A DNA stretch of 64,000 nt from Candidatus Omnitrophota bacterium (GCA_029261055.1 JAJDCA010000068.1:5275-69274); one strand, 5' to 3'. Positions 4,496-35,988 are shown, counted from the first letter of the stretch. Made by a program: numbers and translations. The notes: generated by a model not told the origin, from the sequence alone.

Positions 4496-4510
4496 AGCGA
4501 TTCCTCTCTA

Positions 4511-11476: not shown

Positions 11477-11687
11477 CAATAGTAATCTTCTTTCCTAAAA
11501 TAAGTTCAATTTCATGAAGCATCATTTTTAATTGTGGAACGGAATATTCATGATTGGAAGGAATCGCGAGACGATACCCTTGCTTCACCATAAAATGGTG
11601 ACGCGTGCCAGCAAAAGGCCCGTCAAATCCAAGCTTGCGTAAACGGCGAAGGAAATCTTTTCTCTTACACGGAGACCATCGAGTCAC
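11457..11687 (-). CDS. hicA: HicA-family mRNA interferase toxin
   Basis: 76 aa; KRKDFLRRLRKLGFDGPFAGTRHHFMVK...SVPQLKMMLHEIEL fits the HicA pattern. Confidence 0.65.
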   Translation of the reverse strand: MTRWSPCKRKDFLRRLRKLGFDGPFAGTRHHFMVKQGYRLAIPSNHEYSVPQLKMMLHEIELILGKKITIEKWYSI

Positions 11688-11931: not shown

Positions 11932-11967
11932 ATGCCCCCCTTTTTTTCTAAACCATACCATGTTATC

Positions 11968-12080
11968 TATTTTAAGAATACCATTTTTTTCTCTACTTCG
12001 CTATATTTTCTATTTCTTCGACAAGGTCAATTGAAGCAAAGCCGGGGGGAGCTGGGCGGGGGTGATATTGAGGATGACGG
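11968..12080. repeat. Copy R3 of the giant-gene 3'-terminal repeat (tail + stop codon + core)
   Basis: ttcttcgacaaggtcaattgaagcaaagccggggggagctgggcgggggtgatattgaggatgacgg. On the minus strand it encodes ...SVILNITPAQLPPALLQLTLSKK*. Confidence 0.85.
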
Positions 12081-12095
12081 AATCAATATAATTTT

Positions 12096-12338
12096 TTAAC
12101 GATTTATTTTCTCATACAAAGTTTCCGGGGCAATATCAACACCATTAGGCCATGTAATTGTACCACCGTCGATAACCGCCTGCTTAAAAAAACGTAAATC
12201 ACGCAATGCCTCAAAAACAGGGCCCTTCTCTAAATATGCAGAAAAATCCACCTCTCCCTCTGACCCATCATCAAATACAATACGAAAAACATAATCCTTT
12301 TCATACTGTATTTTTTTTACCTCATTCATATTCCACAT
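12096..12338 (-). CDS. DUF2442 domain protein (partner of DUF4160; TA-like pair)
   Basis: 80 aa; [18 protein letters not shown] is a DUF2442-type C-terminus. Confidence 0.6.
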
Positions 12339-12346
12339 AATTCACC

Positions 12347-12607
12347 TCATGTTAATGGCTCAATTTTCTTAAGTTCTTTACCTGCCCTCGCAAATTCCCA
12401 ATCTTCAATAAGCTCTTTCTGATGGAGGTCTATCCACTCTCTAATTAATTTCCTCGCTGTTTTTGAATCTATACTTCCCCTCGTTACGTTCCCATTAAAA
12501 TCAAAAACTGCTTTATCATCTTGGTACTCAGCATGTAAATGCGGAGGATTGTGTTCATCGTAATACATTCTTATCAAAATTCCAAAAAACCTAGATACGA
12601 TTGGCAT
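12347..12607 (-). CDS. DUF4160 domain protein
   Basis: MPIVSRFFGILIRMYYDEHNPPHLHAEYQ is a DUF4160 hallmark. The start is at the internal Met, preceded by an AAAGGA RBS. Confidence 0.65.
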   Translation of the reverse strand: MPIVSRFFGILIRMYYDEHNPPHLHAEYQDDKAVFDFNGNVTRGSIDSKTARKLIREWIDLHQKELIEDWEFARAGKELKKIEPLT

Positions 12608-12712
12608 TAAAATTCCTTTCTTTAGTAATTTATAGTATTCGCAAATTAAATTCGTTAATTTTGAAATAGCCATCAGTGTCGATTCAAGGTGACCTAAAAA
12701 TCTACGTATTTG

Positions 12713-12871
12713 TTTTGCGAATACTATATTTAAAGAATACCATTTTTTTCCTCATCGCGCTATATTTTCTATTTCTTCAACAAGGTCAATTGAAGCAAAG
12801 CCGGGGGGAGTTGGGCGGGGGTGATGTTGAGGATGACGGAGACAAGGCCAGGGAAGTTGCCGGTTTGGATG
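12713..12871. repeat. Copy R2 of the giant-gene 3'-terminal repeat (tail + stop + ~114-nt core)
   Basis: About 90% identical to 13425-13540. On the minus strand it encodes ...IQTGNFPGLVSVILNITPAQLPPALLQLTLLKK*, in frame directly after the DUF2442 stop codon. Confidence 0.9.
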
Positions 12872-13105
12872 TCAGGTATTTGCGGCTTTGTAAAGACCAT
12901 CAATGGATAAGTCCTCATCCACATCCGGCCAATGAATGCCGTATCCTGACGGGCTTACACAATAATTTTGTTTCTGCGCTAAACTTGCGGTGGTTAGTCT
13001 TTTTGAAACCTGAGAAATATCAATAGCATATTCTTTACCATCAATTTGCAACATCATGATATTTTCTTTAAAAAAAACATTTTTGACATTATGCATCTTA
13101 TTCAT
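12872..13105 (-). CDS. DUF2442 domain protein
   Basis: GYGIHWPDVDEDLSIDGLY is a DUF2442 motif. Start uncertain (MNKMHNV... or MHNV...); the full ORF runs to 13159. Confidence 0.6.
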   Translation of the reverse strand: MNKMHNVKNVFFKENIMMLQIDGKEYAIDISQVSKRLTTASLAQKQNYCVSPSGYGIHWPDVDEDLSIDGLYKAANT

Positions 13106-13355
13106 CTTTTCCTCCCATAAATTCATCCCACTGAGCCACAATGTAATCAAAATGATCAAATATAATTTTCCTAATACTTCTTTTATCTTGTGGACTCATA
13201 TTGTATCCATAGGCTTCACGAATTTCATAAATATCAACATCAAGCCAATACTTACACTCAGACTCTGCTTTTTTACAATGAATGTGTATCGGCTCATTAC
13301 CCTCATTAGAATAAAAATAAAGCCGCCACCCCATTATGACTAAAATTGTCGGCAT
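13098..13355 (-). CDS. DUF4160 domain protein
   Basis: MPTILVIMGWRLYFYSNEGNEPIHIHCKK. Internal Met start with an AGGAGA RBS. Confidence 0.65.
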   Translation of the reverse strand: MPTILVIMGWRLYFYSNEGNEPIHIHCKKAESECKYWLDVDIYEIREAYGYNMSPQDKRSIRKIIFDHFDYIVAQWDEFMGGKDE

Positions 13356-13424
13356 GTGCATTTCTCCTTTCGCTAAAAAGGATGCCATATTTTTACATAT
13401 TGGTCAAGGAGGATTTGCATGTGC

Positions 13425-13540
13425 TTATTTCTTCGACAAGGTCAATTGAAGCAAAGCCGGGGGGAGTTGGGCGGGGGTGATGTTGAGGATGACAGGGACG
13501 AGGCCGGGGAAGTTACCGGTTTGAATGTCACGCATCTGTT
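13425..13540. repeat. R1: the 3' terminus of the giant gene, the master copy of repeats R2-R5
   Basis: Encodes ...MRDIQTGNFPGLVPVILNITPAQLPPALLQLTLSKK*. Near-identical copies lie at 12758-12871, 12011-12080 and 11412-11448; a diverged copy lies at 37321-37385. Confidence 0.9.
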
Positions 13541-16500
13541 GCTGCAGCATGGCTGGGTCCAGGTTTAGCTCTAAACCTTGCCCCTGAATCTGCATGTCCA
13601 TGCCTTGCGGGTCCAAGTTGATTCCACCGAGAGATGCCTTCGTCTTTTGATTCAGCATGGCGTTGTCTACATTTTTTAATTTTTCTTCCAAGCGCGATAA
13701 TGTCGCTTCATAATCTACTATTGATGAATTAGCTTCCATTCTAGCATCTTTACTCTTTATTGACCCATCATCTGGCATTGCTTTAAAATAATCCTTATTT
13801 TCTTGAAGCACCTTTTTAATTCCCTCAATTTCCGCCATAATTCTTTGTTTCTCCTCAAGACTTTTAAGCACTTTTTGTACAGCGGCTATCCTTGCGTCCT
13901 TTTCTACCGAAGATGCTCCTACTTCTTTTAAAGCCTTTGATTCTAATAGTTTATCTAACTTAGAATCATCGGTTAACATCGTTCGAAGAATTTTTATTTG
14001 CTCATCAATATTTTCATCCATTATTGTATCTTTTGGCAATTGCCCTTTAAGAACACCTATGGATGAATCTAAAATCAGCGTTCTCATAGATGAACGCGTG
14101 TCAATACTCACAGTTCCTCCATCGAGAGTCTTTCCTGTTACCATATCTTTTATTGTCTTCAGCACTTTTATGCTAACAATCGTTTCTGCTGTTTCTTGAT
14201 CAATAACTGACGTCTTTTGATTTTGCGTATTGTAATTTTCCTTATCGACAACTTTACTGTCTGACGCTTCCCGCCTTTTGCGCAGATCCTCCGACAATGT
14301 AGCGATGGCTTGATCCAATGTCGCAATTTCCTGATCCAGTTTCACGGACTCTGTAAGGTCGTCCTTCGCAGCAACCCGAGTCTTTCGCTTCTCTATCCGC
14401 TCCTCCATCGCCTGAACCCATTGTTTGGACAGATCAGATATTTCATCATCAACACCCTTCGAAACTTCTAATTGCTTATCTAACTCTATAGGATCCGCCC
14501 CTTGAGCTTTTAATGCCGCAAGCTCTGCTGTCCAATCATGAATATCTTTATTGGCCATGGCTTTCTTGGTTACTACAGCCAACTCACCCACTGTCAATGT
14601 ATACCCATCCCTTTCTTTTATTTTTGACTTAATTTTTGTCTCAAGTTCTTTTATTTTAAGCGTGCCGGCTTGTGTATTTGGCGCATCTTTTTGGTTCGAG
14701 GCCTTCGCCTCAAACGCGGCCTTTTCTTGCGCCAGCAACCCATCGATCTCCTTTTCTCTCTGATTCCATTCATCCTCAATCTCCATCCATTGGGCCGTCT
14801 CTTTTTTAAGGGCCTCGATTTTGACGGGGCGGTCGTTGTCCACCACGTCATCGCCGCCATCTAACGGCTCTGCGATTTGGCGTATATGGGCGTATTTGAC
14901 CTTGCCGTTTTCATCTTTATACATCTCTGCTGCCTCCAGACGATCCGGAGAAAACTCAAGGTCATAAGCTTTTATCTTAGTGTTTTTCTTAAATGAATTG
15001 TCAATTAATGTATGCACACTATTGCTAACTTCCTCGACTCCCCTTCCATCACCTTTTATAAACCCCACCCTTACACCTGCATTTATAATATGATGGCTAT
15101 TGGGTAAAAATTTTGCCACCTGACCATCCGCTGTCTCAAGGATGTCAATTTTCTTCCAATCGTTATCTCCAACCTTATCCTCCCATACAGTTCTATTAAA
15201 AGATGTCGTCACAATAATCATCTTCCCATCTTGGGACAACTCCAAATTCTTTACCTCTCTATTACCGGAATCAAATCCTTTATTATCAATAACGTTTCCA
15301 TCTTTGTCATGAAAATTAACGAATCCACTTTCCATGCCTGTTAAAATAAATTCACCATCTTTTGTAAACCTTGTAAAACTTGCATTGCCGCTTAAAAACT
15401 TACCTTTACCCGTAGTCATATCAAATAGATATTGCTTACCTTTTTCCGTCAATAGCACTACCTTGGTCGAATCTGAATTAATGTCGATGCTTTCGACTTT
15501 TTCTTCTAACCTCTTCCCGTTCACTTTAAATTCCTTTATCTCTTTGCTTTCATCCACAGGCACAATGCCTTGAAAATTGTCCGCAATAATCACTGACTTT
15601 TCACCATCCGGCGCGTCAACAATAAAACTTTTTTCGGGGTTAATTTGAATAGCGTTTGTAAATAATGGACGAGAACCCACATCATCTGGCAAAACATCAA
15701 CCCACTGCATAGAAGATTCACCACCAATCCATAAAATACGGCCATCCCCGGATAATTTCACCACAACATTTTCTACTCCGGCAGGAAAACTTAATAACTC
15801 TTCATCGGCTCCTTTAGCCGTATCGCGCACACGCCAATGTGGCGGCTTCCCCTGCCTATCCTCTCGCGTCAAAACAATCCTTCGCTTGACCGGAGGAGCC
15901 CCCTTCTTGCTACCATCCATCAGCCACGCAACCTGCACAATTTCCTCGTTATCTGGGGCCGTATACGGCTGAATCACCGTCATATCCTTCGCCGCTAAAA
16001 CCTTGACGGCGCGGGGTTGGCCGGTGGACATAAACTTAGCCACAGGCCAGACGGTTAAACCGCTCTTCATATGCGCCATGACGCGCAGAGGACCTTCGGT
16101 TGAAAATTCCAGTTTGGGCACGACATCTTTATCCACATTTTTCAAAGCATCTGGCGCCGGTAGCTCTATGCGCTGTTTTGTATCCATATTCTCCAGCCAA
16201 TATTTACCTTTACCATCCACGACAGCTAAATAAATCCCATCCGAAGACAACGCCAACGCCTTAACACCATCTTCAAACGGATCTGCTTCTCCTTTAAAAT
16301 CTCCTGTTTGCGCATACCACCAGCGCACAATGCCATCTTTTTTACTTACTGTCGCCACCCTGGTGCTGTCTAGCGAGTAGACCGGCCCTACATTCGCACT
16401 TGTATTTTTTTCTAACTCCTTCAAAGGTCTTTCATTATTAACATCCCACAACTTCGAAACCCCACCATCCTTATCCAAAATAACTATCCATTTATTATTC

Positions 16501-19500
16501 GGAGAAATTCTGGGCTGGACTTCGATTTTCAAACCTGTTTCTAACTTGGCTAACTGTAATAACGATATCTTTATCTTATCCACCGTTTGTTCGATTATAA
16601 CATCCCACACACTCACACCACCCTCCATATCAGTGGCTACTATTTTCTTAGATTCATATGCTCCAATATCTGGATATAATATCGGGTTAACAGGAACAAG
16701 CTTACTATCAGACCATTTTTTTGTAATATCATACACTTCAATTGCTTGACTAAAATATGTTATGATCACTTGATTGCTATCAGAAGAAAACCTTGCCTGT
16801 GATGGATTATCTGCCCCTAAATCTATGCTCGATTCAATATCGTTAAAATTCCACAACATCACACCAAAATCATGACCTGCCAACATTTTGGTTTCATCGT
16901 CAGAAATTTCAATCCATCTTACTTTAGAATACAATAATCTATCCAACAGGACTAATTCTCCATTACTTTCCACATCACGTATGTGCACCTTCCAAGTATC
17001 CTTGTCCATGATATTTGGATTGCCAGCACTTGGTTTCCCCGCGATAAATTCCTGCGTCACTACCTTACGTCCTTTCCAAAGATAAGCAATAACCTCCTCC
17101 CCCTCTGGCGGCGTATAATTCACAGGCATCCTCCTGTCTATCGCCCCTTTCTGCAAACCCTCTGCCTTTTGAGCATCCACCTCCGCCTGCACGGCAGCTT
17201 CGCTTTCTTCTTGTTTGCTCAAAGCCCGCTCACCTTCAACCAAAGATTCTTTTTTCTTTGTGAGGAAATCTTTTCGTGCCTCCCAATATTCACGCTCATA
17301 TTTTTGCAGCATGGCAGAATCTTGTTTTCTTAACTCTTCCTCTAATTTTTTCCTTTCTAACTCAAAAACTCTTTTTGTATCTCTTGAACCTTCACGTAAT
17401 TTCTCAAGACGTTCTATTTCACTTAAACTTGCTGAAGTTGCAATTTTTGCCAGTTTTGTTTCAAAATTCTCAACATTCCTCTGCTGTTCTGCAATTAATC
17501 CCTCAAGTTCCAAAATCCTTTTTCGAAGCCAATCCTTATTAGAAATATTACTATCAACCACGTCCTCTTCAGATTCATCTATCCCCAACATTTTATTAGC
17601 TTTTTCCAGCTCCGGATCCACCTCACTCACACCCTTTTTATAATCTGCCCTCGTCCTTCTCTGCACCCCTCTCAACTTTCGTAAGCCTGCTTCCAAATTA
17701 GTAATTTTTTTATCTATTTCCTCCTTCTCTTGATCCAGCTCCTCAACTAAAGCAGGTTTATTCCCCACGACCGCCCGGACCTTTACATTCCCTATCCGCT
17801 CTTTGATCGCCTGCACCAATTGTTTGGACAAGGACAGCATCTTTTTAAAGTTCTTGTCTTTGCCTTCCGGAATTTTTACTGGCTGATCTAAATCATTTGG
17901 ATTAAGACTTTCAATTTTGCCGACGCTAAACACCTGCTGTTTGCTTCCTTCTTTATTCCGCACCATTACCTGAAGCCTATCTGGATAAAACTGAATTTCT
18001 TCCGGATTAAATTTTATGTAACTCCAATTTGCTACTTCCCCTGTTTTAAAATTCCTCATGATAATAAGCGTAGTCGCACTGGGCGTATGGCTGCCAATAC
18101 TCAAAAAATGTTCATTGTCCGGCAAAAAATACCCGAACTTATTAACCATGTGCTTAAACTCTTCCCACGCCTTGGAATCTTGTTTTATCTTTTCACCTGT
18201 TTGCGCATCCCGTAATACCAATTTTCCATTTTCGTCTATGATTAGTAAAGTATCTTCGTCTGGGGATAAATCTGTGAACTTTGCTTCTTCCCATATGCCA
18301 AATCTACTTGGTTCTGCACCATTAATATTCCGTATCCACACCGGATACCCATCATCAGATTTACTTTTTTTAATGCTAATCACATTATTCCCGTCAGAAG
18401 ATAGCCTGGCTAAAGCAATCCCCTCCCTTCGAAAATCAGTTAATTCAATCCCTATTTCTGCTTCCATATTCCATACCCTTTGGGTATTCGATTCATCTAA
18501 CGTTAAAAGTGTTTTGTTATCTGAAGAAAGCTGTTTGTAGCGTATTTTGCCTTCTTGAGAAATTTGTGAAAATTTAGGACTTCCACTTTTTTCCCAGTGC
18601 CATGTTGTGACAATGCTTTTTTCTGTTTGACTACCTATGGGGCCCTTCCTTGATCCAATGACAATTTCTTTTCCATCGGATGAAAATGACAAGGAGGAAA
18701 TAAAACCGGTAACCTCAGTACTGTTTACAAAGGTACGCTTGGTATCATCTTCAACACTCCATACATCAACCTTATGATTTGTTGTTGATCCGGATTTTAA
18801 CGCTATTTTTGTTCCATCAGGGGACAACCGAACAACATTTTTTTCTAAAGTATCAAATTTGGGAAAAAGCTCTTTATTATCTTTCGTATCTCGAACCCTC
18901 CACTCATAAGCCTTAATAATATCTTGTGTATTAAGATCAGCTAGCTCAATTTCTTTCCACGTCAAAGCCCTCTCGCTCTCTGGCCAATAATCCACAATCG
19001 TCTCTCCGGGTGGCGCTTCATAGGCGGGGTTGATGGGAGACAGTTTAGGCGTGCCGTCCGGTTGATCTTGTTCATTTTGTTCAGCTGCTTGAACTTTTAA
19101 CGCCTCAAGTTCTTTTATTTTAGCAAGTGTGTTCGCGTCTCCCTGCGTCTCTTCCTCGGCTGATTCTTTAGGCGCCTCGCGATCAACCTTCTTTTGTATT
19201 TTCACTAATTCTGCGTCAATTCCTTTCGCCCGCGCATTTAATTCAATCTCCATCAACCGCCTTTGTTTTTCCTCTTCTTCAAGGGCCTTGATTTGGGCGG
19301 GGAGGTTATTGTCCGAGGGAGGCGCATCATCGTCAGTCGACTCTGCGATTTGGCGAATGAACACATGTTTTATTTCTCCATTTTCTGTGTATGTCTCGGC
19401 TTGTTCGAGATTGTCAGGAGAAAAAACAATGTCATCTTGAATTATTTCTCTCTTCTCATCCTTATCCTTTTTATATTCCTCCTCGAAAGGATAATCAACA

Positions 19501-22500
19501 AAACCAACATCACTTTTCCCCTCATATGTACCTATTGTAGGCATCGTCCGTTTTGATCCAGAAAGAATATTTTCCCCCACCATAACGGTTTTTCCATCTG
19601 GCAAAATTTTCTGATTCCCATGCAAATAGTTTTCCTCTGGAATCCAATCTTTAATATTTTCATCCCACTTCCATAATTTCCACCTACCATCCATTTTTAC
19701 ATTCACCTTGTGCATAATTTTTCCATCCCAAACAACATCCAAATCCTGTACAGGCTCATTGCCAGCGTTAATGCTTTTAAATTTTTCTTCTGTTTTGACA
19801 TCTTCAAAATCTACTGTTTTGGCATCTTCAAAAAGAACAAATCCGTTGTTCGTTCCTCTCAAAGAAACCTGACCATCTTCTGTAAATTTTGAAAAGACAA
19901 CATTAGCGTGATATTGAAGATGCGATCCTGTATTCATATCAAATTTATAACTATTATCATGATTCGTTAAAACTGCTGCGTATTGCGAATCCGAAGAAAT
20001 CTTCACATTTAGTACTTTGAGTCCCCCCTTAGCGAACGGTTCTTCCCCGAGAGCATCTTTAAATTCCTTCTCGTCTTGCCCATCTAAATGCACAATACCC
20101 TGAAAATTATCTGCAATAATGACAACTTTATTGCCGTCTAAGGCATCCTCGACTTTATGAATACGCCCTAAATTTTTACGAATCTCCTTCCAATCATCTT
20201 GAATCAAACTCGATGAAACAAAAAGCTTTCCATTTTTTTCTGCGTCAAATAATTTCTTACCATCTTTGGAAAATTGAAGAGTTCCTGTTGACATAACTGG
20301 CCTTAATAAATTTTCATCATTTTCATTCTTTCGTGCAATATCCCGCACTTTCCATACTTGCAGCTTATTTAACGTCAAAACAACCCTTCGAGTGACCGGC
20401 TCAGGCCCCGTATCATCTTCCACCCACGCATGCTGTACAATTACCTCCCCCTCCGGCGCGGTGTACGACTCTTTCACCTTCATTTGATCGGCTGGTAAGA
20501 CTTTGACTTTACTGACATCGGACGTATCATTTTTAGACATAATATTACGAATCGTCACATATTTTCCACGTCCATCATGGTTATAAATTTCCATCTGCGC
20601 AAGCTGGCCATGAATCAATTGAATATCGGCTAACTCAAGTATTTCAAGATCAGAATTAAGAGGCGCATCCATTTTATAGGTGCGCAAACCATCTGTAAGA
20701 TACAAACCAGCTGTTGCATTTCCCTCTGGAGCGTCTCTGAAAAACATAATATGCTTGCTATCCGGTAAAAACTTGGCTCTAATTGCATTCTCGAGTGAAT
20801 AATTCTCGTCTAGCGTCCATTCTCCAGAAATCGCATCTTTTTTCCATACAGTTATTTTGCCAAACTTTGCCTTAACAATTAATTTATTTTTATCCAAAGA
20901 TCTTTCCAAATATTCTATGGAATCATTTCCTGGCAAATTAAAAACATCTTTGGTCTCTTCTCCAGTATGGGAATCGCGAAATGAAATACCCCCACCTATT
21001 TTTCCAATTAAAACTACTTCATCATCTAAAGAAAATTTAGCAAAATTTATATTTGAATATTGCGATCTATAGATCCGTTCTCCATTTTCAATATTAATAA
21101 GATACACATTATAGTCAAACATCACGAAAGCAGCGAGTTTCCCATCTTTTGAAATTTCAATACTTTTCATATTCCCTTGCATATCTTTTAAAGGAATATC
21201 TTTACCTCCATTTAAACTTACAACACCTTGAAAATTCTTGGACATAACAAGAATACCCTTCTTAACTTTCTTAAGCTCAATCCCTCTCACAAGATCTAAA
21301 TTTTTATTTATTTTTATCCAATCATCCTCCTCTTTATTTACATATTTATAGCTAACCCCCTCTGACGTTGCCATCATCAGAATTCCCTCTTTAGATAATG
21401 TAAAACCATCATACTGACCAAGCGTTTCTTCTACTTTTGGAGTCCCCTCAATCATAGCTTGACCTTCAAAATTGCGCATTTCTCCCCAAACCCGCCATAC
21501 CACTTTCTTTTCACCATTATTTTCGATATCTTCACGCGTTACCACATACCAGAAGCCAGAATAATTTAATTCCACAAATTCGACAACACTTTCATTTTCC
21601 GAAATCCCCCAAGATTCAATATTTTCTTTTATTTTCTCCACAGGCAAAATTTCATCCTTACTGCCTTGTGTTGTCTGAGCATTCTCTGGCTCCAACTCCG
21701 CTTTCGCTTGTGCCACTTTCTTCTTATTAACCAACGCCTGCTTGCCTTGAACTCGGGAGTCTATTCTCTCTGTAAGCAAAGCTCTTCGAGCCTCTAAGTG
21801 TTTGCGTTCGTGCTTTTGCATACCAGAAGAAACTTGTTTTTTAAGAAAATCCCTTAATTGATTAATTTCACCTTCAAAAATTTCTTTTAATTCTATTTCA
21901 TGTTTAATTGAGTTTTTAAGATTTTGTAGTGTCAGGCCATTTCCAGAAGCATCCTTTATTTCTTCGGCTTTGATCGCTTCCTTTAATTTTTTAATTTTTT
22001 CTTCCTGTTTCGCAATTAAAGCTTCTTTTTCCTTAATAATATTTCTAAGCTGCTCCTGATCATTTGAAACACCACTAATCCTCTGTCCCAACATCACATC
22101 AACTTTCTCTAATTCCACTCTATCCGCCGCAAGCTCCCCATCATAATCGTCTTCCGTCATATCAATAACACCGGAGAGAGGTTGTTTTAATTCCTGTATC
22201 TTCTTCTCAACATGCTCAAGCATATCTTTGAAAAGATCTTTGTATGTTTCATTACGCAACAGGGGTGGAACCTTTTCCAAAGACGAAAGTTTATCTTCTT
22301 TTAGCTTATTGATTTGTTTAAAAAATTGATCTTTTAGATCCTTAACAGCACTTTTCTTCCCTTGCCCCATAGCTATCCGCCCAATTAAATCTCTTATGGA
22401 TAGCATGGCAGCGTCTTTTTTTCCCGAATTCAGCACTTCTCCACCACCTCCTCTGACAACAAAAGGCTGCAATTGAGTTCTATCTTCATTAAAAATAACG

Positions 22501-25500
22501 GCTTGATTTTGGTGGGGAAAGAATTTGGCTTCCCTCTGAGAAAATTTATTCTCCATTAATTTTCCATATATTTCACCTGTACGCGCATTCACAATTCCAA
22601 TATTATTAGATTTCCCAATGCCGAAGAAATGTTCATTATCCAAAAATACCGCCCCCAAGTTAAGCAGCGTTATTGAAAGATTTATCCAGGCAGGTGACGC
22701 AGGCATTATTCTTTCACCCGTCATAACATCCCACACGTGCAGCTTGCCTTCTTTATTCCTGGTCAACAAAGTTTTCCCATTGGGAGACAATTCCAGGTCA
22801 ACAATTTCCCCTGCGGCAGAAACAAGTATGGGAGGGGAATTTATCCCAGTATTAAGATCTCGTAAAATGACATTTTTTCCCTGAACAAACATTAAATATT
22901 TTGAACCTCTAGAGAATTTGGCGAAGGATACAGAATGTTCTTGCTGAATCTCTGATTTTGTGTCCATATTCCTAAAAGCCAACGTCCCAATTCCAATCTT
23001 ACCCTTTAGGCTCATAAACAACCACCGATTATTATCAGAAAGTTTACTGACCACCGAGATGCCGGCATTACCTAACGATAATAGATCTGATTCATCATCG
23101 ATTGCCCAATTCCATACGATCGTTTTCTTATCATTATGATCCTTTGTATTCTTTTCCATAATAATTCGTGAACCATCCTCTGAAAAAGAAAAATCATCAA
23201 ATTCACCTTCTTTACTTGTCGCCAACGGCTTACCCTTATCGATCTTGCGTACCTCCCATAATTCAATTTTCCTTTGTGATGGTTTATCCTTCCAAACCTC
23301 CTTGGCAACCTTAGTACCATCCGGCGAAAGATGGGCTGAATTTGTCACTAAAAGGTCAAAAGAATTTACTTCATCTCCCCCCTTCCTCACATCGCGCACA
23401 ATCCAATGATTTTTCCCATTCGCACGAACTATATTATCCTCCGTCAAAACCAGGCCACTTTGCGGCGAATAGTCGACAATGGTCTCACCCGGTGGGGCCG
23501 TGTACACATCCAACGCTTCCAAAACTATCTTGCCGCTACCGACTTTATTTTTCAAATCATTTGCGGCGGCAAGCTCCGCATTTTTTTTCTCCAGCGCCAA
23601 CTGCTCATCAAAAGATTGCTCCTGCTTCAGATACTTAGCCTTCTGCGCCGCCCATTTCTTTTTTTCCTTTTTAAAGGCTTCAATTTTGTCGGACAAATCA
23701 CTACCTGAAAAAGCTGATCCTCCTCCAACGTCTTTCGCAATCTCGTGGATGAGTACATGTTTTGTTTGGTCCCCTTCCTGCCATGTGGTGGCTTGTTCGA
23801 GATTATCAGGGGAAATATTTAAACCTTTAACTTGCATATTTTCTACATTTTTTAATTTACCTAAATCATTTATACGATGCACAGGTCCGTTCCCGCTTAT
23901 TACACCTAAGGCAGGTTTACCCTTATCTAAAACTCCTGCCGTCATAATTTGACCATCGGGTAAAAATTTTGATTCTTCGACCACCACTGAACTCAAGGGA
24001 TCCCATTTTCTAGCGTCTGGCTTCCATTCATACCTTGCCTTAAATCCTTTTGTTGCCACAATTAATTCCTTCTTATTAAAAGATAACTCTATATCCTGAA
24101 CAGCATCGCTTACCTGAAGCCCTTCTATTTTTAGAGCCCCTGTATGGGGACTTTTAATACTGACTCTTCCATCTTCCGAGCCTGTTAATATAAACTGGCC
24201 ATCCCTTGAAAATTTTGCAAAACTAACGCTATCCCCTTGAAGCATGAAGCCTTCCCCCGTCTCCATATTAAACAAATACAGAGCTTTCGACTTTGTCAAA
24301 ACAAGCGCCTTGCTCGAATCCGAATCGGGAGAAATGTCGATACTTTCGACTTCTCCCTCTAATTCTTCCCCGTTAACTTTAAATTCCTGCGTCTCCTTAC
24401 TCCGTCCATCCAAATACGCAATGCCTTTAAAATTTTCGGCGATCACTACCACTTTATTACTGTCTGAAGAATCTTCAAATTGCTCGATTTTTCCAAATTC
24501 ATATCGCACTCCACCCCTTGGCTCGCCCTCCAAATTTTCTCGAAAAACCCCATCAGGAGTTGCAAACAAGAATCTATTACCATCCTTAGATATCTTAGAT
24601 TTTTCCTCCTTACTTACCGTATCTTCTCGTAATGGATCTACACTCTCTTCTTGCTCAATATCGCGCACTCTCATTACCTTCGAATTAGGATCGTCAGCTT
24701 CCGCCTCAGTCAAAACAACCCTTCTCTTTACCGGCACATCCCCGTTACCATCCATCTCCCACGCCACCTGCATAATCTCTTCCCCATCCGGCGCAGTGTA
24801 CGTCTGAATCACCTTCATATCCTTCGCTGGCAGGACTTTAATGTCACCTTGTACAGTGTTCTTATCCTGCCCTGCTCCTGCCTCTGGATGTGCATCATCA
24901 ATAAGCCATTTATGGGAAACACGATCATAAACATTTTCGGAACTAATCTTTTCTCCCGTTTTTACATCAATAATTTCTCCATCTCGATGATGCTGCATCA
25001 AAACTTTTGTCCCACCAGGTGAAAGTTCAACATACGCTTTCGGCCATTCAAACACACGTAATTCTTTTCCACCTTTTACGTAACGCACATGCCATCGGTA
25101 ATGCTTTACCATTTTCGTATACGCATATTCTTTTTCTACTGTTAATACCCTCAACCCATCCTCTGAATATGAATGAACCTCCTCTGCGTCCTTAGGCTTA
25201 AAGGCGGGGGCACTGCTCATAAAATCAGCCACAGGCCAGACGTTTAACCCGCCTTTAACATGGGCTTTGACGTGGTGCTCTCCATCACGTGAAAATTCTA
25301 ATTCCGGCACCTCATCTTTCTCAAGCTTTTGTAAAGCATCCAATGCCGGCAGCTCTGTCCGCTCATTACCTTTTTTTTCTAAATCCTGCAACCAATATTT
25401 GCCCTCACCATCCACGACGGCTAAATAACGGCCATCATGAGAAAGGGCCACGGCTTTAACACCTTTTTTATGTTGCTTGGTTGCTTTTATTAATGCACCT

Positions 25501-28500
25501 TTTTCCGCATCCCATACACGCACTACCCCCATTTTACTAACTGTGGCTACCCTAGTGCTGTCCCGGGAAAAAACAGGCTCTAATGCGGCTTTAGTATTTT
25601 TTTCCAAATCAAGCACCCGCTTTTCTTTCTCAACATCCCACAACTTCGAAACCCCTCCATCTTTATCTAAAATAACCATCCTCTTATTATCCGGAGATAT
25701 TGTGGGTTGGACCTGAATTTTTAAACCTGTCTCTAACCCGAATCTGTACCCACTTTTAATATCCTTTACCCTCACCATGCCCTCTTCATCAGTCGCTATA
25801 ACCTTGGTTCCATCAGGAGAAATATCCGGATGCAACATTGGATCGTTAGGTAAACTCGATGATGTGGGGGATGTCGTGTCTATAGTATCAAATAGATCAT
25901 ATCTTCCACTATTCGTTGTCCTAAACACATGATTACCATCCGGCAAAAGTTTTGCAAAAGGATAATTACCTAAGTCAATACTTTCATCCTCACCTTTTAA
26001 GTCCCACCACACGAATTTTCCATTATCATCCTTTGTCAGTATTTTTGTTTCATCATCAGAAACACCTACCACTTTCGCATCAAATCTATGACCCCTATTC
26101 CATGTGACTAACTCAATATTTTTCATATCACGTATGCGCACGTTACGAGAAGCACTCGATGCGCCAATCTCCTTCTCCTGCGTCACCACCTTGCGGCCGT
26201 TCCAAAGAAACCCAATAACTTCCTCCCCTGGCAGTGGTTCATAATTTATAATCCCTTCCGTGTCCACCGCTCCTTGCTGCAATGCCTCTGCTTTCTGAGC
26301 CTCCACAGCCTTCGCCTCTTCTGCTTCTGCCGCTATTTCCTTAATCAACGCCTGTTTACCGTTAACCACCGCTATCAGTTTCTTTGTAAGAAGTTCCTCT
26401 TGTTTGTTTGGCCCCTGAACTTGAAGCTCGAGTTCTTTTATTTCTGCTTCTAATTCCTTTTCCCTTGTTCTATCTGGGAGAGCAACACCAGTTTCTAAAG
26501 TAATATCGCTTATATGTTGCTCTTTCACTAATTCCTTCTTAAGCCCTTCTATATTTCCAACCCCTTTTGACGGCTTACGAATTTTTATTAATTCTTTTTT
26601 CACTTCACTCTCAACCTTTTCGTAATCCTTCAGCGTTCTCTCGATATCTACAGGGCGGGATTGTTTTAATTCCTGTATCTTCTTCTCAACATGCTCAAAT
26701 ATATCTTTAAAAAGATCTTTGTGTGTTTTCCTGCTCAACAAAATTTGAACCTTTTCTAGAGGCTCAAGCTTATCTTTTTTCAAATCGGTGATCTTTTCAC
26801 GCAATTCCTTTTTTAGCTTACTAACAGCCTCCTCATCATTTTTCTGAAAATCTATCCACCAAATTAATTCTCCTATGGATAGCATGGAAAAATCTAACTC
26901 ATCCAATCCTTTCGTAAATTCAGGATCATAGGAATCTTCGATTTCCTTCATTGTTTGGTCAAAGAATGCGGCCGACCAATCGCGTTGAATACCCAAATTC
27001 TTAATAAGATCTTTCGTTGCATTCATTCTGTTCTTATTTCCCTCTTTATGTTGTTCCCATGTTTCGCCTTTACTTCGATAATTTAAAATAAAATCAATTT
27101 GATCCATAACCTTCTTCATCATAATCATTCGACTGCGTTGTTCCTCGAATTTCTTTAGTTCTTTCCATGATTTTTCGCTCAATAACTCTGCGATAATTTC
27201 ATTAAGATTTTCAATATTTTGCTCTGTTTGGCTTTCAAATGTATTGGTCCATAAGAGCTGGAGAATACGGTCTAATTCCGGATGACCTGTATCCGGCTCT
27301 TTGCCTTCTTCAATTTTCAAATTCTGAATAATGACACTTTCTTTATCAAGAAAATCAGAAATGGCATCAACGTCAGGATCATCACTAAACAATCCTTTTT
27401 CACCGGCCACATCTAAAATATTATTCTCGACCGGTGAAGTTTGATCAAAGTCACCCTCTATTTTAAAGGCCTTCATAAATTGTTCATGGATAATACGTTC
27501 TGAAATTTTTGTTTTGGCTCTCTTTTTAAAAGACTCACTCTTTTCTGTCCCTGTCTTTGCAATTTTTTGCAATCCATCAGCCCTCAAATAATTAAACCGA
27601 TCCACTAAAAACTTCACGTCTTTCACCAAAACACGCACACTGATTTCACGACGTTTAGGCAGAGTGGTACCGTCCAAAGATTGCCGATAATTTAACTCCT
27701 GCGCCATACCGATAATGCCGTCATATTTGACGCTTCCGTCAGGATAAGTTTCGTACTCTACATCGCTTACTTCTTGCTCCGACTTAGGAATCGGCATTCC
27801 GATAAGACGCGGATTAAGCCGCACCACTTCGCCGGTTGAATCTAGCTGTTTGGTTGAAACTTTACTTAAAAGTTTAAACATCAAGTGCGGCGGTAAAGGA
27901 TCAAATTGAATGGCAGGAAGACGTGCCAATAAATCTGCGGGAAGGCCCTTGATACCAGACGTAGAACCCGGGGTATTGCTTAAAGCAATCAATCCAAAAT
28001 TATCTGCCCCCTTACGCTTTTTATCCTTTTTCGTCGGATCAGGAGTCTCATCATATACAATCACATCATTCAAAGCACTAAGCACTTTATCTCTGGACTG
28101 CGCAATTTCTTCAACGATCAACACATTGCCTTCTCCATGCTCATCTTCCATAGCTAGCGGTAAGGCATTGATAGTTATCTTTGAATTACCACCCACCATC
28201 CCCTCCTGAAACGTAATCTGATCGAGCCGTGTTTGTGCTGTCATCTCAATCGTATGTTCTCCCGGTTTATTGCGCAGACGTACAATGGCCTTTGCTAACG
28301 TACTCTTTCCGCCCCCCGGGCCACCCACAAAATGAACTTTAATCTTCAATGCCTGCAATTGCAGCGTTAAATAAAGTTTCCCTACATTGGCTTTCAAATA
28401 CGTATTGACTTCATTTACATCCTTGGCCACATCAGCAAATTCAATCCAGTCAATAATCTCTTGCGGCAGGCCGGCATAATGAAAAGAAGCTTTAGAATGA

Positions 28501-31500
28501 ATAGGCAGCCTTATTTCATCCCAGAATTCTGTATTTTTTGGTGTAATAATGATTTCTTTGCCGGAAGGAGAAAGCTTAAAAGAATCTTTTGTTAATTCTA
28601 AATCCGGCACATTCAATTCATCCGGGCGCCAGGATGAAAAGTGCGTAATATTGCCGGCATACGTATCATTACTATCAATTTCCGCATGAAAATTAAAATA
28701 ATTTTTGATGGTGGTGAATGGACGGTACAACCAGTCTTTTTCATATTTAATTAAATGTTGAATCATAAAGGCCGTTAGCCGTGGATCCGGTGCACGTGTA
28801 AGCCGCTCCCCCTTAGAGTTGTCCGGACCATTTTCAAAAAGATCCCTGATCTTGGAGTCCCATCGCATTTGCGTGGCCAGATAACGTGGATCTAAAAGCT
28901 CCCAATCCTCAAAAATCGCGGCTTGTTGTTCGGGGCTGTATCCAAAAAAAGTCAAACGCAACTCATTGGAAATACGCACTAAATCCGTAATGTCTTGGGT
29001 AATTTTTTGTTCAAACTCCTCCCATCGATCATCATAGGTGCCTACATGTCTAGCAAATTTCAGGGCATCGGCCAATTGCCATTCAGCTTCTTCTTCGGTA
29101 GACTGCCAATGATATAAAATATTTTCATCCCGTTCCTGCATTGCCGTATTATTGGTGGTCCAATTTCCTGTAATGTTAGGCCACGGCGGATTTTCTGTGG
29201 TAATAATCCTGGACATCGGATGATCGCGCATCGTTTCAAATGTAACCATACCATCCCGCTCAACTTTCCACTCATGCGTCTTGGCGGGAATATGTGATTT
29301 GATGCCATCCCAAACACCCGGCTCATATTTATGTCGTTCATTCTCTATAATCCATCCCCCCACATGCTTCACATAATTTAATAAAGACGGTTTAAACCCG
29401 GTTGTCCCATTTTGCAAGGTCCGTGTCCCACGCGCAAGCCCTTCATCGGTTGCATCTTCATTACCGGTTTCTGAATACGTCGGCATATTAATTAACCGGG
29501 CTGCCGCAGACGGCATTTTGGTTTTGGCTAAACCCGGGCCTCCGGACAAAGTAACGGTCTGCCCTTCCCATGAGTCGGACATGCTATCCTGACTAACGGT
29601 TAAATCATACAACACCTGCCATGAACTTTTTTCCCGTTCAATAATCAAAACCCTTTTTTCCTGCCGGTTAAACGCCAAAATACGATTTGAATCTTGTTCA
29701 TAAAAATACCATTGCGTCAAATCCAAACCTTTCAAATCACCTAAACCTTGAAAATCACCATTCTCCTGACTGAGTAAAACCTTTTCTGAACTCTGTTCTA
29801 GTTTCACCTGTAACTTCTGAGTGTTTTCATACACCCCTTGATTTTCAACCATATGATCTGCGGAATCAAAAGCATGCAGGAATTTTAAATATCCATCCTC
29901 TTTATTTTCTTCCATCACCTCCAATTTTCCATCCTCAATACCATGAATAAAATATTTACCATCGGTGGAATAATCTGTGGGTGACCGTTGATCCGGCCGA
30001 TGTGTCGCCAAAAGAATATTAATTATTTTATCTTCATTAGCCTCTGTATCTTTAATCACTGTTGTCGGCACACCCATGCCACCCGGTCCCATTGGAAAAT
30101 ACAATGGATCCACACCTTCCCGTTGAAACATGAGCTTTTCTTGACCATTCACTTTTTTATTAAAAAAGTGACGATACTCTTCGGTTGTATTCAACTCTGA
30201 ATCTTCAACCACCATGGAAGCATCTTTTAATTGCAAATATTTTTGCCAATCACTGTCTGAAACAAACCCACTCTTTTCAATGGCCGTAAAAATGGCATCA
30301 CCCACTCTGGAAGGAAGCCCTGTGAAAGGAAACGGCTCAATCACCCGCTGCAACTGCCCCTTGGGTTGTTGATGCAACACTTTAGTATCCTCAACCTGCT
30401 TGGCCGTACCCATAGGGATAATAAACACATTAATGCCATGCTCTCTGGCCTTATTAATCAGCCCAAGAATTCTGGATTTTTGATTAGGATCAACATCTTC
30501 ATCCGTTAAAATAAATAAAATTTGCACGCCTTTTTTTTCGCTTCGCTCGGCCGCTGCAATCTGACTTGTAATATATTTCTCTAGATTATCGGCATAATGC
30601 GTGCCACCTCCTGCCTCCAAATTGGTCCACGCCCCATGCAATACCTTTTCTCGTTTAACATTGGGCTCTCGGATAGTCTCGCGTAATAATTGCAGATCTT
30701 TATCATCATCGGAAAAATAACCAACCTCATACCCAAGATCATCATCCACGATTACCTTGCGCATTTCATAATGTTGAAAAATAGAATCGGTCAAGACAAA
30801 GGATATGATACGTGCCATTTCAATCGGCAAATAATTGCTATTTTTTCTATCTTTCTCCCCCATGCTATAACTGCGATCAACCAATAAAGTAATATCCAAG
30901 GGTAATGGATCTTTTTTAATCGGATTATTATATCCCTGCGCACCCAGAAAAACATTAAGCGGCTGGGTCATAATCGCTCCATTGTCCAATAATTGACTTA
31001 ACTTAAAGCCGGTTGTTGCGATCAACAAGGCCTTAAACTGACGGGTTAGGCGCTTAACAAGCGTTCTAATCGTCACAACTGGTTTTCTTTTTAAAATATT
31101 TATAATGCTTAAAATTTTATTTAATGTTTTATTTTTATCGTCATATTCTGAAAATTTCTCTCTAAATTCTTTTTCATTAAAATTTTTACTAATTTGATGA
31201 TTCTCAAGAAATCCTTCTATTTCCATTTTCTCAATTAATTCTTCCCCATCAATATCCAAATCTCGAAAATGCTCCACTTGAAGAGTTCTGCCTTCGGATA
31301 TTTGCTTTTTATACCATGTTTGTAATTCGCGATGCTGCGTCTTATCCAACCCGCTTGTGGCTTCAATCTGTGCTTCTTCACGCAACTTGGCTGCCTTTAA
31401 ATCAAATTCTTTAGGTTTAATCGGTTTAATATCTGATGGCGGCAATGCTTCTTGTTTCTTTCCAGTCTCTCCTAAAGGTTTTACATCAGGCAGATTAATG

Positions 31501-34500
31501 GTATCGGGCATTTTTTGATAATTCTTTGACCTATCTTTTGCACCCTTTTGGGTTTCTCCTGCTTTAGCCGGTTCACTTTTGCTGCCTGAAGACTTATTCA
31601 TATCTTGAGATGCCTGTGAAGAAGATGTTTCCTGCTTGCCTTGCCCATCTTCTCCTCCTTTGTTATTTTTATTATCCTCGCCTTTCTTATTTTCTTTCTT
31701 CCCTGGCTCGCCTTTATCTTTTGATCCACTTAACGATTGTTGAATACCTTGAATAGATTTTTCTAATTGATGAAGGTTACGTAATACATCCCTATTGGCT
31801 CCTTGGGTTTGATCTACGCCTTTGTTAACATTATTTAAGGCCTTATTTAATTTTTCTGTTTCATCTGTAATTTGAGGCACATCCGGGGAAGGGGCATGCG
31901 TTTGCTTGACTAAGTTATCGGCAATGTGCTTAAGTTTGTTGGCCTTATCTTTCAAATTCTGTAACTTCTCTAATTGTTCCTGTGATTTTTTATCTACCCC
32001 GTTAGATAACTTTTTAGCCTCATTAGCTAACTCTGGAGAAGGCAAACCTTGTTGTATTTGAGAAACTTTTTCATTTTGCGCACTTCCCTCCCCCGCGGCC
32101 AAACGCCCTTTATTTAAAAGGTCTTGGGATTTGTCCTGAATGCCTTTTGCCTGCTGTTGAATTTCTTTTGATAATTTCTTTGAAGTATTTTTATCAGACT
32201 CACTCATTTTTCCCGGAGTAACATCCCCAGATTTCTTTTTAATATCGTCTAATTTTTTAGCAATAGTATTCGTGTTACTTGCTATAGCGTTTAATTGTTG
32301 TTCAAAATCCTTAAGCGCATTTTCAATATCATCCGTACTTTTAGGGGTAGCACCGGGTGATACCTGCCCTTGGCCCGAACCTTGAGATGAACCCTGACCT
32401 GACGATGCGGCAGATGTCTTTTGTGATGAGCCGCTACCCCCACCGGGTTGTGATAAATTTTCAAAACTCTTTTTTCCTTGTTCCATATCTTCACGAACGG
32501 CATCTTCAATGACTTTCTGAATTTCTTGCGGTAGGTTTTTACCATACTCATCAAGTTCTTTACGCTCTTCTTCTGTCAACTCTTCATAGACTTTACGAAC
32601 GATCTCTTTGGCTATTTCTTTAATCCCTTGCTTCAACTGTTCCTCTCGTCTATCTTGCTCTTCTTTCTTTTTGCGTTCATGTAGTCGTCGACGTTTCTTC
32701 TCCTTAAAAGCCTCTGCATACAATTCCAAATAAACCGGCCCGACCTTCTCATTGATAATCCTGATAATGTCCCCTTGTTTAAGTGATTCCGGTCTGTACA
32801 TCAGCTTAATCCACCCATCATCATTTACATCCTTCCCCATACTACGAACCAGCGCATCTTCCACCTGAGGATTTTTATTACGTGGATCTTTCATATTGCC
32901 TTGTTGATTTTCTTTGTAATGATATCGCAGATAAAGAAGGGAATCTAAATAACGTAAATGTAAATCGTAGGTGTTGTATTGTGCCTCCTCAATCAAAGGA
33001 TTGCCGATGTCATAACGATCCTGAAGAATCCGGCTCATCCATTTCCTGGAACCATCAAACTTTTGTTCAAAAGCTCTATGTTTAATATTCTCTGCATTCA
33101 CATCATGCCCAATGCCAGAAACCTTCGGAAAAAGAAGGGTATCCCACATCAGCAATGCATCGGGATGTTTTTTGATATCTTCATTCAAATCATCAATCAA
33201 ACCGCGTAAACCAAATTTAACACGGGAAATAGCAAGAAAGACCTGCCCCAGAGTACGGTCGCGTGCAGCCTGAAGCTTACCCTTTAAATCGTCTTTATTC
33301 TCTCCGTCATACGTTCGTGGATAACGATCTGTTTTTACATAATGCATTTGTCCCACCGAGGAATCCAACGACTTATACGTCCAAAAACCATAGGGGGCCG
33401 GTATAAATTCAACTTCCTGTTTGGCGGCTAAACGCTTGGCATATTCTTGCCATTCCTGATCGATTTTCTCTAACTCGCTAGCTAATTGAGGATTATCTTT
33501 TGTTGGATCCCCATAACGTTCATACAACACATCAAGAAAATCTTTAAACAAACGTAGGGGGTTGACGTCTTTTTGATTTTCCGACATACCCATCATAATC
33601 CCGCCCACCAAAAATCCCATCGCACGCTTTCTGGTGTATTCATCATTCAGTGCATCCTTTCGTAACCCTTTTGCTTCATAGACTTTTTCTACTTCCATCT
33701 CCAAATAATCCATCACAAAATAACCAGCCCGACGGTCTGATGTTCCAGGATGAATCATAAACCCGGTTTGTCCACTCAATCCCATTTCCTTACCTCGCTG
33801 ATACAACTCGCTAACCGCGGGTTCACCGAATTTATCAACGTCATGCGGAAGTTTTTCTTCCCCTTCTTTTAAATTCTTCCCCGCGTGCTGCACATATTCC
33901 ATCACGGATATCGCAAAGGTGATTTGCTCCCATTCAGGTGGCATTTTCAAAATTTTGTGCCCTATTTCATGAGGCAAGACAAGCCGCATCATCAGTTCAT
34001 CTTCAATTGGGCTTATGAGCACATTTCCCGTGTCCGGCGCGAATGCCCCTTTGGATTGACCAAAAGCTACGGGCATCTGCACAATAGCCGCCGCAATTTT
34101 CTTACGGCCTTCCAGATCTTTAAAACTTTCTCTCCAAAAATGCTCCGGAAGATAACTGTCAAAATTGTAGGGTTTAATGGTTTCATCTAACATTTTCATA
34201 ATTGCTTTTTCTTCAGCTGGATTATCAGATAATGCACTGGCCATTTCTTTTTGAATAGTATCAATGTGTTGTTGCGTTTTAAAAAGATGCTCCTTCTGCC
34301 CCACTCGCCGAAGCTCTTCCTTTAATACATTCATATCAAGGCCAACACCCTTTCCAGGAATATGCATTCCTACTAGCAAAGGATCGGCTATTTTACGATC
34401 AATCACATCCTCTTTAATCAAACGAAGCAAATTATCATCCGACATTTTCTTTACCGCCTGACTTAAAGGTTCCACAACTCCAATCCTGCGTTCTTGAGCC

Positions 34501-35855: not shown

Positions 35856-35988
35856 ATTGGTCCTATTTAGCAAATAAAGAAGGATATGTTAAGTGTGCCA
35901 TATTTTTCAGCGCAATGCCAAAAAATGTTTTGGGTAGGATTTTAGAAAGGGAAAAAAAGTGATAGCCACTTTTTTTGTCACTATTTCT

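Follow-up and report, generated by a model that had tools for sequence, protein, structure and literature searches.

A giant gene of a Candidatus Omnitrophota bacterium probably carries three old and strongly diverged tandem copies of a coiled-coil and WD40 propeller module

INTRODUCTION

A preprint survey of 229 Omnitrophota genomes (Nielsen & Lui 2026, 10.64898/2026.06.07.730766) found a Pfam domain repeated in 65% of long proteins, and described 'tandem-repeat scaffolds' with up to 20-21 copies of the WD repeat PF00400. Synonymous changes, and those non-synonymous ones that are tolerated, have built up between the copies until 'the nucleotide tandems have dissolved', and sequence singletons are the norm among the long proteins. 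A second preprint (West-Roberts et al. 2023, 10.1101/2023.11.21.568195) described giant unannotated Omnitrophota proteins in which AAA_5 is recurrent, and proposed that they act in surface attachment or attack. Here we analyse a giant gene lying in 64,000 nucleotides (nt) of DNA from a Candidatus Omnitrophota bacterium (GCA_029261055.1, JAJDCA010000068.1:5275-69274), which we call the window; positions are counted from its first letter. A preliminary description of this DNA had proposed that the gene is internally duplicated. We find it highly probable that the gene contains three old, strongly diverged, lineage-specific tandem copies of a module made of coiled coil and WD40 propellers, with no ongoing gene conversion between them.

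The gene is a single uninterrupted open reading frame (ORF) of 22,449 nt on the minus strand (13425..35873), encoding 7,482 amino acids (aa). The protein exceeds the 5,000 aa that define a 'huge protein' (PMC11573180), while falling below the 10,000-aa threshold of the Nielsen & Lui catalogue. It resembles their scaffolds in being a very long, exported or anchored protein of an Omnitrophota genome, in which one repeat type is dominant and the copies have diverged at the nucleotide level. Where a signal peptide or transmembrane helix would be expected of such a scaffold, the protein has a hydrophobic segment at aa 15-46, the only one found by a Kyte-Doolittle scan of the whole protein. It differs from the scaffolds in that the repeated element is a composite supermodule of ~1,100-1,500 aa present three times, and not a run of single Pfam repeats. 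We found no mention in that survey of the vWA, AAA_5 or conserved N- and C-terminal domains of the giant protein, and its text does not contain 'AAA', 'VWA', 'propeller' or 'coiled'. Diverged repeats have already been described as the rule in the long proteins of Omnitrophota, and the present gene is an ordinary example, although one that can be well resolved.

The Archaeovorins and dockerin-type giants of West-Roberts et al. come from the same phylum, and share with the present protein its giant size, the scarcity of annotation and AAA_5. WD40 does not occur in the text of that preprint. The protein analysed here is much shorter, and HEAT, TPR, glycosyltransferase, dockerin and thrombospondin-3 domains were not detected in it with Pfam, so that its assignment to either type of giant is rejected.

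New beta-propellers reportedly arise by repeated duplication within a gene, with single blades amplified into one propeller, a view attributed to Pereira and Lupas in 2022. The 8-9 propeller units of the giant protein share an opening motif and a weak but significant similarity, as expected of such amplification. By contrast, whole propellers together with their coiled-coil spacers have been duplicated here, as units of ~1.5 thousand residues. In repeat-variable surface proteins (adhesins and the products of contingency or antigenic-variation loci) the repeats are long, with ~95-100% DNA identity, and copy-number polymorphism is documented. The present protein is like them in its large size, its surface-type character and its repetition of binding modules, and in-frame direct repeats could in principle mediate gain and loss of modules. 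However, the blocks of the giant gene are 49-77% identical, with no exact repeat longer than 38 nt. With neither long near-identical repeats nor conversion tracts, we reject the classification of this gene as a variable repeat protein maintained by recombination.

RESULTS AND DISCUSSION

Three paralogous supermodules

Residues ~2994-7201 of the giant protein hold three paralogous supermodules, each of ~1,100-1,500 residues, with borders at aa 2994-4487, 4487-5985 and 5986-7117. These lie near the borders drawn in the preliminary description (aa ~3010-4510, 4510-6030 and 6030-7010), whose range of 14844-26846 corresponds to aa ~3010-7010. The repeats are too diverged to have been collapsed in the assembly, and the three-module structure is therefore trustworthy. 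The blocks follow one another as La1; cc1, A1, B1, C1, ccD1, D1; La2; E2, C'2, C2, ccD2, D2; Lb3; E3, A3, C3, cc3; Lbt; tail, and occupy the following positions.

13425..35873, minus strand: giant ORF, 7,482 aa, comprising N-domain, low-complexity/coiled region, weak vWA, AAA_5, three supermodules and C-terminal motif
26619..26894, minus strand: linker La1, aa 2994-3085; contains the 38-nt exact repeat (26661-26698) within the KDLFKD... island (26661-26720)
26259..26618, minus strand: coiled coil cc1, aa 3086-3205; homology with the end of E3 covers the C-terminal half of cc1
25209..26258, minus strand: WD40 propeller A1, aa 3206-3555; contains the LETGLK... island at 25632-25736
24834..25208, minus strand: B1, aa 3556-3680; short remnant like the N-terminus of the D-type propellers
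23769..24833, minus strand: propeller C1, aa 3681-4035
23514..23768, minus strand: short coiled coil ccD1, aa 4036-4120
22404..23513, minus strand: propeller D1, aa 4121-4490
22140..22415, minus strand: linker La2, aa 4487-4578; paralogue of La1, identical to it at 75% of 228 nt, synonymous divergence ~0.5
21639..22139, minus strand: coiled coil E2, aa 4579-4745
20508..21638, minus strand: propeller C'2, aa 4746-5122; diverged C-type unit in the A position
19374..20507, minus strand: propeller C2, aa 5123-5500
19029..19373, minus strand: short coiled coil ccD2, aa 5501-5615
17919..19028, minus strand: propeller D2, aa 5616-5985
17670..17918, minus strand: linker Lb3, aa 5986-6068; second linker type, paralogue of Lbt
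17124..17669, minus strand: coiled coil E3, aa 6069-6250
16008..17123, minus strand: WD40 propeller A3, aa 6251-6622; contains the second LETGLK... copy at 16440-16544
14874..16007, minus strand: propeller C3, aa 6623-7000
14523..14873, minus strand: coiled coil cc3, aa 7001-7117; homologue of ccD1 and of ccD2, with no D propeller after it
14271..14522, minus strand: linker Lbt, aa 7118-7201; paralogue of Lb3, opens the C-terminal tail
13428..14270, minus strand: C-terminal tail, aa 7202-7482; ends in GGI(D/N)L ... (F/L)xPVIxxIxP

Self-comparison of the intact protein by BLASTP returned the identity match alone, and the protein was therefore cut into overlapping chunks for BLASTP and BLASTN. 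At the protein level 22 off-diagonal alignments then pass 1e-4. The best pairs aa 3380-3555 with aa 6444-6618 (E = 2e-69, 62% identity), and further block pairs are found at 3e-37, 3e-35, 5e-32, 2.5e-20 and 1e-17. Blocks defined from these alignments were compared by phmmer and by shuffle z-scores. The strongest phmmer match is A1-A3 (7e-87), followed by C1-C3 (2e-50), C1-C2 (1e-41), C2-C3 (1e-34) and D1-D2 (9e-31). La1 matches La2 at 1e-22 and E2 matches E3 at 1e-13, with C'2 matching the C units at 1e-15 to 1e-20, Lb3 matching Lbt at 8e-10 and the three short coiled coils matching one another at 1e-4 to 1e-8. Self-alignment thus contains significant internal similarity, far above chance, as had been claimed for this gene. 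The four peptides quoted as examples of it lie where they had been placed, i.e. aa 3380-3414 at 25632-25736, aa 6444-6478 at 16440-16544, aa 3052-3071 at 26661-26720 and aa 4545-4564 at 22182-22241.

The order of blocks is collinear in all three supermodules: linker, coiled coil, first propeller (A or C'), C, short coiled coil and D. The modules differ by presence and absence, in that D is missing from module 3 and cc1 of module 1 is a truncated E. The position held by A in modules 1 and 3 is taken in module 2 by the C-like unit C'2, while B1 is a 125-aa D-like remnant in module 1. The blocks had been described as recurring in shuffled order; this is not so, as only losses, truncations and the substitution of a unit distinguish the modules. 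We do not claim homology between the La and Lb types of linker, for which the shuffle z-score is <= 2.9.

Within propeller C2 a 24-nt unit is duplicated in tandem and in frame (window 19786-19833, 2.0 copies, 91% match). This is the sole recent-looking tandem duplication of the module region.

WD40/beta-propeller families provide the only Pfam matches in the last 4,493 residues of the protein, and no other Pfam domain is repeated in it. Within aa 2990-7482 the matches are to PF00400 WD40 (1.3e-14, 54 bits against a cutoff of 27), Beta-prop_EML_2 (112 bits, cutoff 90), ANAPC4_WD40 (52.7 bits, cutoff 22.9) and the NUP159/214 propeller (55.8 bits, cutoff 29.6). All propeller units begin with Y-T-A-P-x-G-E-x-I/V, and they are related to one another weakly yet significantly (shuffle z 5-15). 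In an AlphaFold2 (AF2) model, aa 3158-4000 consist of beta strands that fall into blade-like groups of four, at low confidence (mean predicted local distance difference test score, pLDDT, of 52). The best PDB matches that Foldseek finds for this low-confidence model are the tandem WD40 proteins Utp21, Pwp2, Apaf-1 and 2ymu (E ~1e-16, global template-modelling score 0.2-0.3).

Divergence of the copies at the DNA level

In codon alignments the DNA identity between copies is 49-70% over whole blocks. BLASTN finds stretches of 19-359 nt, most of which are 65-360 nt long at 68-77% identity; three others, just 19-43 nt in length, are 81-100% identical. The best extended identity between copies is 77% over 206 nt. 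Exact direct repeats of at least 20 nt number just two in the whole 22.4-kb gene, and both fall within islands of higher identity. One is a 38-nt repeat in the linker (26661-26698 and 22182-22219), with its copies in frame and 4,479 nt apart, and the other a 24-nt repeat in the WD40 propeller (25632-25655 and 16440-16463). Tandem Repeats Finder detected no large array in the giant gene.

For the linker island, ~90% nucleotide identity had been reported over ~75 bp. We find 66/75 nt (88%), rising to 57/60 nt (95%) over the core, in good agreement. The WD40 island is identical at 90/105 nt (86%). While the identities originally quoted hold, the term 'near-identical DNA islands' was generous, in view of the two exact repeats of >=20 nt and the 68-77% identity of most stretches. 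The islands appear instead to be conserved peptide motifs under purifying selection, corresponding to a WD40 blade and to the end of the linker helix.

This view of the WD40 island comes from its synonymous sites. With the method of Nei and Gojobori (NG86) the proportion of synonymous differences (pS) is 0.45, the synonymous divergence (dS) is 0.69 and the non-synonymous divergence (dN) is 0.06, giving dN/dS of 0.09. Synonymous sites have diverged while dN is low, and we therefore conclude that there is purifying selection on the blade motif. The linker island is different, with dS of 0.12 over 20 codons, and 17/18 synonymous codons identical where 9.4 are expected from codon usage. This excess would be explained if selection acted directly on the nucleic acid (DNA or RNA) of the island, which might for instance be an internal regulatory or structural element. 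However, codon identity is equally high in the surrounding linker block (21/28 codons identical outside the island), and synonymous divergence in the WD40 island is ordinary; we regard such selection as extremely unlikely.

The islands might alternatively be recent tracts of ongoing gene conversion or unequal crossing-over, with the number of modules varying between strains, as the preliminary description had suggested. The 38-nt exact in-frame repeat and the low dS of the linker island are in keeping with this, as are a synonymous divergence in the linker block that is significantly below that of A, C and D and an incongruent pattern of nearest neighbours between modules (below). Against it stands the dS of the WD40 island. 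Moreover, identical codons are not clustered in any block: in none of ten block pairs does their longest uninterrupted series exceed that seen in shuffles (P 0.09-0.99). The patterns of informative sites in the trio of C propellers are nearly star-like (195/180/140), and a max-chi-square test on this trio gives P of 0.04-0.30, with marginal breakpoints only at the extreme end and none that convinces. RecA-type recombination needs a minimal length of homology. With block identities of 49-77% and two exact repeats of >=20 nt there is scant substrate for it, and even the least diverged block has reached dS ~0.5. We found no footprint of recent or ongoing conversion in the ten block pairs, the C trio or the islands, and consider ongoing exchange unlikely.

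Synonymous sites and the history of the array

The same codon is used at conserved residues more often than codon usage predicts in some classes of block and not in others. In the linker (L) it is found at 38/46 positions, i.e. 0.83 against 0.45 expected, in A the frequency is 0.62 (0.38 expected) and in the C pairs 0.58-0.60 (0.39-0.44 expected); the excess is significant for all three. There is no excess for D or for the C'2-C1 pair, each with 0.43 against 0.42 expected. The classes differ from one another in codon identity (L against A, P = 0.009; A against D, P = 0.001; Fisher test). The NG86 values of dS follow the same order, at 0.52 for L, 1.06 for A and 1.19-1.32 for C, with 1.47 for the coiled coil E and saturation for D.

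The neighbouring purB gene provides a reference. Between the window and the six closest genomes its synonymous sites are saturated (pS 0.75-0.87) and dN is ~0.09. The copies of the module now retain 54-75% identity in DNA. Since synonymous sites of L, A and C are not saturated and those of the purB orthologues are, the duplications or homogenizations of these blocks would be younger than the divergence from the closest species with a sequence. Within the modules dN/dS is about 0.3-1, compared with <0.03 for purB. This is more than 10 times the purB value, indicating relaxed or diversifying selection on the modules.

The nearest neighbours of the blocks are incongruent: the linker groups modules 1 and 2, A and C group modules 1 and 3, and the coiled coil E groups modules 2 and 3. 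Together with the unequal divergence of the blocks, this shows that more than one event shaped the array. The gene is thus a genuine mosaic of intragenic duplicates, as had been proposed, and the differences in block dS and the incongruent neighbours show that it did not arise by a single clean triplication. The simplest added event, and the clearest candidate, is probably a later conversion or re-duplication of ~230 nt at the linker (dS ~0.5). At that dS the linker event would itself be old, and past rather than ongoing.

Relatives of the modules and of the whole protein

A profile of the A-C region was compared exhaustively with 1.84 billion representative proteins, and recovered generic WD40 proteins only. 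The top match scores 282 bits, accumulated over 11 stretches that align with the same ~150 profile positions; taken block by block, no outside score exceeds 65 bits for A or 25 bits for C. No relatives of the modules were found in a scan of GTDB genomes or in two scans of JGI metagenomes, and exact look-ups of three neighbouring proteins found no conspecific sequence.

The ends of the protein do have relatives. The N-terminal domain (aa ~20-440) is found in 1,417 proteins at E<=1e-10, with 43-62% identity, and those whose source is named are mostly from Omnitrophota/Omnitrophica. In these proteins it is fused to a variety of domains, including NUDIX, ankyrin, methyltransferase, CheY and epimerase. 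The C-terminal ~80 aa (window 13428-13733, minus strand) contain the motif GGI(D/N)L...(F/L)xPVIxxIxP, which is common to the complete family members of 600-731 aa. In seven related genomes a gene that ends in this motif lies at the same place, upstream of purB. These syntenic genes, under our locus numbers, are as follows.

L063:695-4648
L073:3693-6521
L060:3-5705
L069:2-5248
L071:2-5137
L059:2-3127
L068:1-3570

Two of the encoded proteins are complete (L063 and L073, the shorter of 943 aa and the longer of 1,318 aa) and share the N-domain, to which that of the giant protein (window 34539-35813, minus strand) is 44-49% identical; the longest truncated one has at least 1,901 aa. Residues 7383-7475 of the giant protein align with the C-termini of L063 and L073, and the motif is also visible in L059, L060, L068, L069 and L071. 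Methyltransferase domains are present in three of the syntenic genes, and WD40 modules in none of the seven. These proteins form a large unnamed family, with at least 1,417 members, that has fixed N- and C-terminal ends and an exchangeable middle, and in which the WD40 array appears to be an invention of its own lineage.

An AF2 model of the N-domain (aa 21-450, window 34524-35813, minus strand; alignment of 40 sequences) is mixed alpha/beta, with pLDDT of 65 and a predicted template-modelling score of 0.58. Foldseek finds nothing significant for this model in the PDB (best E 0.87), and the domain has no Pfam or NCBIfam match. A literature search on the conserved N- and C-terminal domains returned nothing relevant.

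A family middle that is freely exchangeable, with different domains in the syntenic members of other species, raises the question of whether the modules come from WD40 genes that were related but separate, and that were fused or horizontally acquired one after another, and the unequal divergence of the blocks would fit such a history. Yet the non-propeller parts (linker, long coiled coil and short coiled coil) recur in the same order in each module. Paralogous blocks match one another at E of 1e-30 to 1e-87, whereas among the 1.84 billion outside proteins even the best score no higher than generic WD40 proteins do, and a shared synonymous signal persists for L, A and C. Assembly from separate genes is accordingly very unlikely.

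Probable origin and function of the array

We propose that a single type of propeller was multiplied first, since the shared opening motif and weak but significant similarity of all the propellers indicate that this older multiplication preceded duplication of the supermodules. The supermodules, in each of which two or three propellers follow a helical linker and a long coiled coil, would then have arisen by lineage-specific intragenic tandem duplication. Blocks would subsequently have been lost or truncated while the copies diverged rapidly at the protein level, with at least one further partial duplication or conversion later on, most clearly at the ~230-nt linker tract. In this account the giant gene grew as a composite unit was duplicated within its lineage and the copies then diverged rapidly. 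This agrees with the phylum-wide claim of old, 'dissolved' repeats, and provides a block-by-block record with synonymous-site dating for one Omnitrophota giant gene.

The modules may function as a multivalent protein-binding array, in which propellers are spaced by coiled-coil rods. The giant protein would then be an elongated platform, exported or anchored, to which duplication added binding units and reach, and whose surfaces were diversified by divergence. By analogy with the proposals made for other Omnitrophota giants, a role in contacting host or prey cells is plausible, and would be in keeping with the host-dependent lifestyle and surface roles put forward for the phylum's giant proteins.

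Several points weigh against the picture of three old duplicates in an extracellular platform. NG86 is rough near saturation, and pairwise alignments at 30-50% identity add noise to the synonymous estimates. The heterogeneity of dS between blocks means that one triplication followed by decay is an incomplete account. The linker island (57/60 nt and 17/18 codons) could be a comparatively recent conversion tract; its run of 14 identical codons is not unusual when compared with its own block (P = 0.36), in a test whose power is low with 18 informative codons. The data come from a single genome, and are compatible with a copy-number polymorphism in the present day. The function is inferred from the types of domain, one N-terminal hydrophobic segment and the literature on the phylum. 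The fused AAA_5 ATPase is awkward for an exported location, and the cytoplasm-type enzymes in other members of the family are equally awkward for a purely extracellular one.

A more dynamic possibility is that the supermodules are a young and fast-diversifying recognition array, with dN/dS near 1 reflecting changing host or prey targets. Whole modules of 1,493 codons would be gained and lost at the 38-nt La repeat, strains would differ in module number and, taken with the cassette array described below, the locus would be a recombination hot spot that remodels a giant surface protein. We think this improbable. The family itself (fixed ends, exchangeable middle and a site upstream of purB), together with the toxin-antitoxin cassettes, is a more useful lead than the modules.

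Toxin-antitoxin cassettes bounded by copies of the 3' end of the gene

Downstream of the giant gene there are three further copies of its final 60-120 nt, all oriented like the original. These copies and the features that bracket the other end of the gene are as follows.

13383-13501, 12727-12845, 11968-12086 and 11391-11450 (span 11391-13501): copies of the 3'-end repeat; the end of the giant gene encodes ...FPGLVPVILNITPAQLPPALLQLTLSKK and the stop codon
35989-37245: DUF4143 ATPase gene
37386-37796: vapC

The repeats are 80-100% identical, and a 33-nt core, AAGCAAAGCCGGGGGGAGTTGGGCGGGGGTGAT, is present 4 times when up to 1 mismatch is allowed, where 0 occurrences are expected. The intervals between successive repeats hold a DUF4160/DUF2442 pair, another such pair that is very different from the first, and a UPF0150 (HicB-like) gene with a HicA-like gene. 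The two DUF4160 genes are very dissimilar as judged by eye, unaligned. Since the repeats are 80-100% identical but the DUF4160 genes are dissimilar, this points to separate insertions, each regenerating the 3' end of the gene, rather than to simple duplication. The cassettes look like serial insertions that regenerate the end of the giant gene.

A fifth, degenerate copy of the tail-coding repeat is found upstream of the giant gene (37320-37373, minus strand), directly after a VapBC (PIN + Phd/YefM) pair. The DUF4143 ATPase gene and the giant gene are thus bracketed by copies of the repeat. We reject an integron cassette array, as there is neither an attC-like hairpin (the sequence folds no better than shuffles on either strand, z -0.3 to +0.6) nor an integrase. 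No recombinase or integrase was matched by Pfam among the 19 window ORFs scanned, and none was recognised by eye in the other translations. Neither the 80 related loci nor IMG/VR contain the repeat core, and it is likewise missing downstream of the syntenic genes in other species.

Other regions of the giant protein and its genomic setting

Pfam analysis of the first 3,000 residues of the giant protein gave an AAA_5 match at aa 2515-2645 (2e-12) and a sub-threshold vWA match at aa 1660-1832. The presence of vWA and AAA_5 on one giant chain is reminiscent of MoxR-vWA pairs and of midasin. Searching with aa 2100-3090 (the AAA_5 region, window 26604-29576, minus strand) gave 0 homologues at E<=1e-5 among 5.8 billion clustered proteins, and NCBIfam gave no meaningful match for the N-terminal 3,000 aa or for the tail. 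Upstream of the AAA_5 called by Pfam there is a second P-loop-like motif, GGPGLAKT, at aa ~2112. A low-complexity stretch rich in S, G, Q, K and E (aa ~1140-1490, window ~31400-32450, minus strand) lies between the N-terminal part and vWA, and is probably a disordered or coiled spacer.

The neighbours of the giant gene are housekeeping genes, recognised by reading the translations as purE/D/M/Q/L/C/B, secG, tpiA and pgk. PurB of the window is 73-87% identical to that of the best 80 loci, most of which are titled Candidatus Omnitrophota, with many others titled 'uncultured Planctomycetales'. Judged from the sizes of the ORFs beside purB alone, the pur-gene neighbourhood seems to be conserved among the related loci.

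At window 40664-64000 Pfam identifies a cluster for cell-envelope polysaccharide, with O-antigen ligase-like proteins, GT2/GT4 glycosyltransferases, a sugar transferase, GDP-mannose dehydratase, epimerases, a B12-binding radical SAM enzyme and a methyltransferase. It includes two large ORFs (51955-53655 and 55153-57225) that have no Pfam match. Lastly, two small overlapping ORFs within the row of pur genes (window 3774-4495, minus strand) have, by eye only, the look of a toxin-antitoxin pair of HEPN and MNT-type nucleotidyltransferase.

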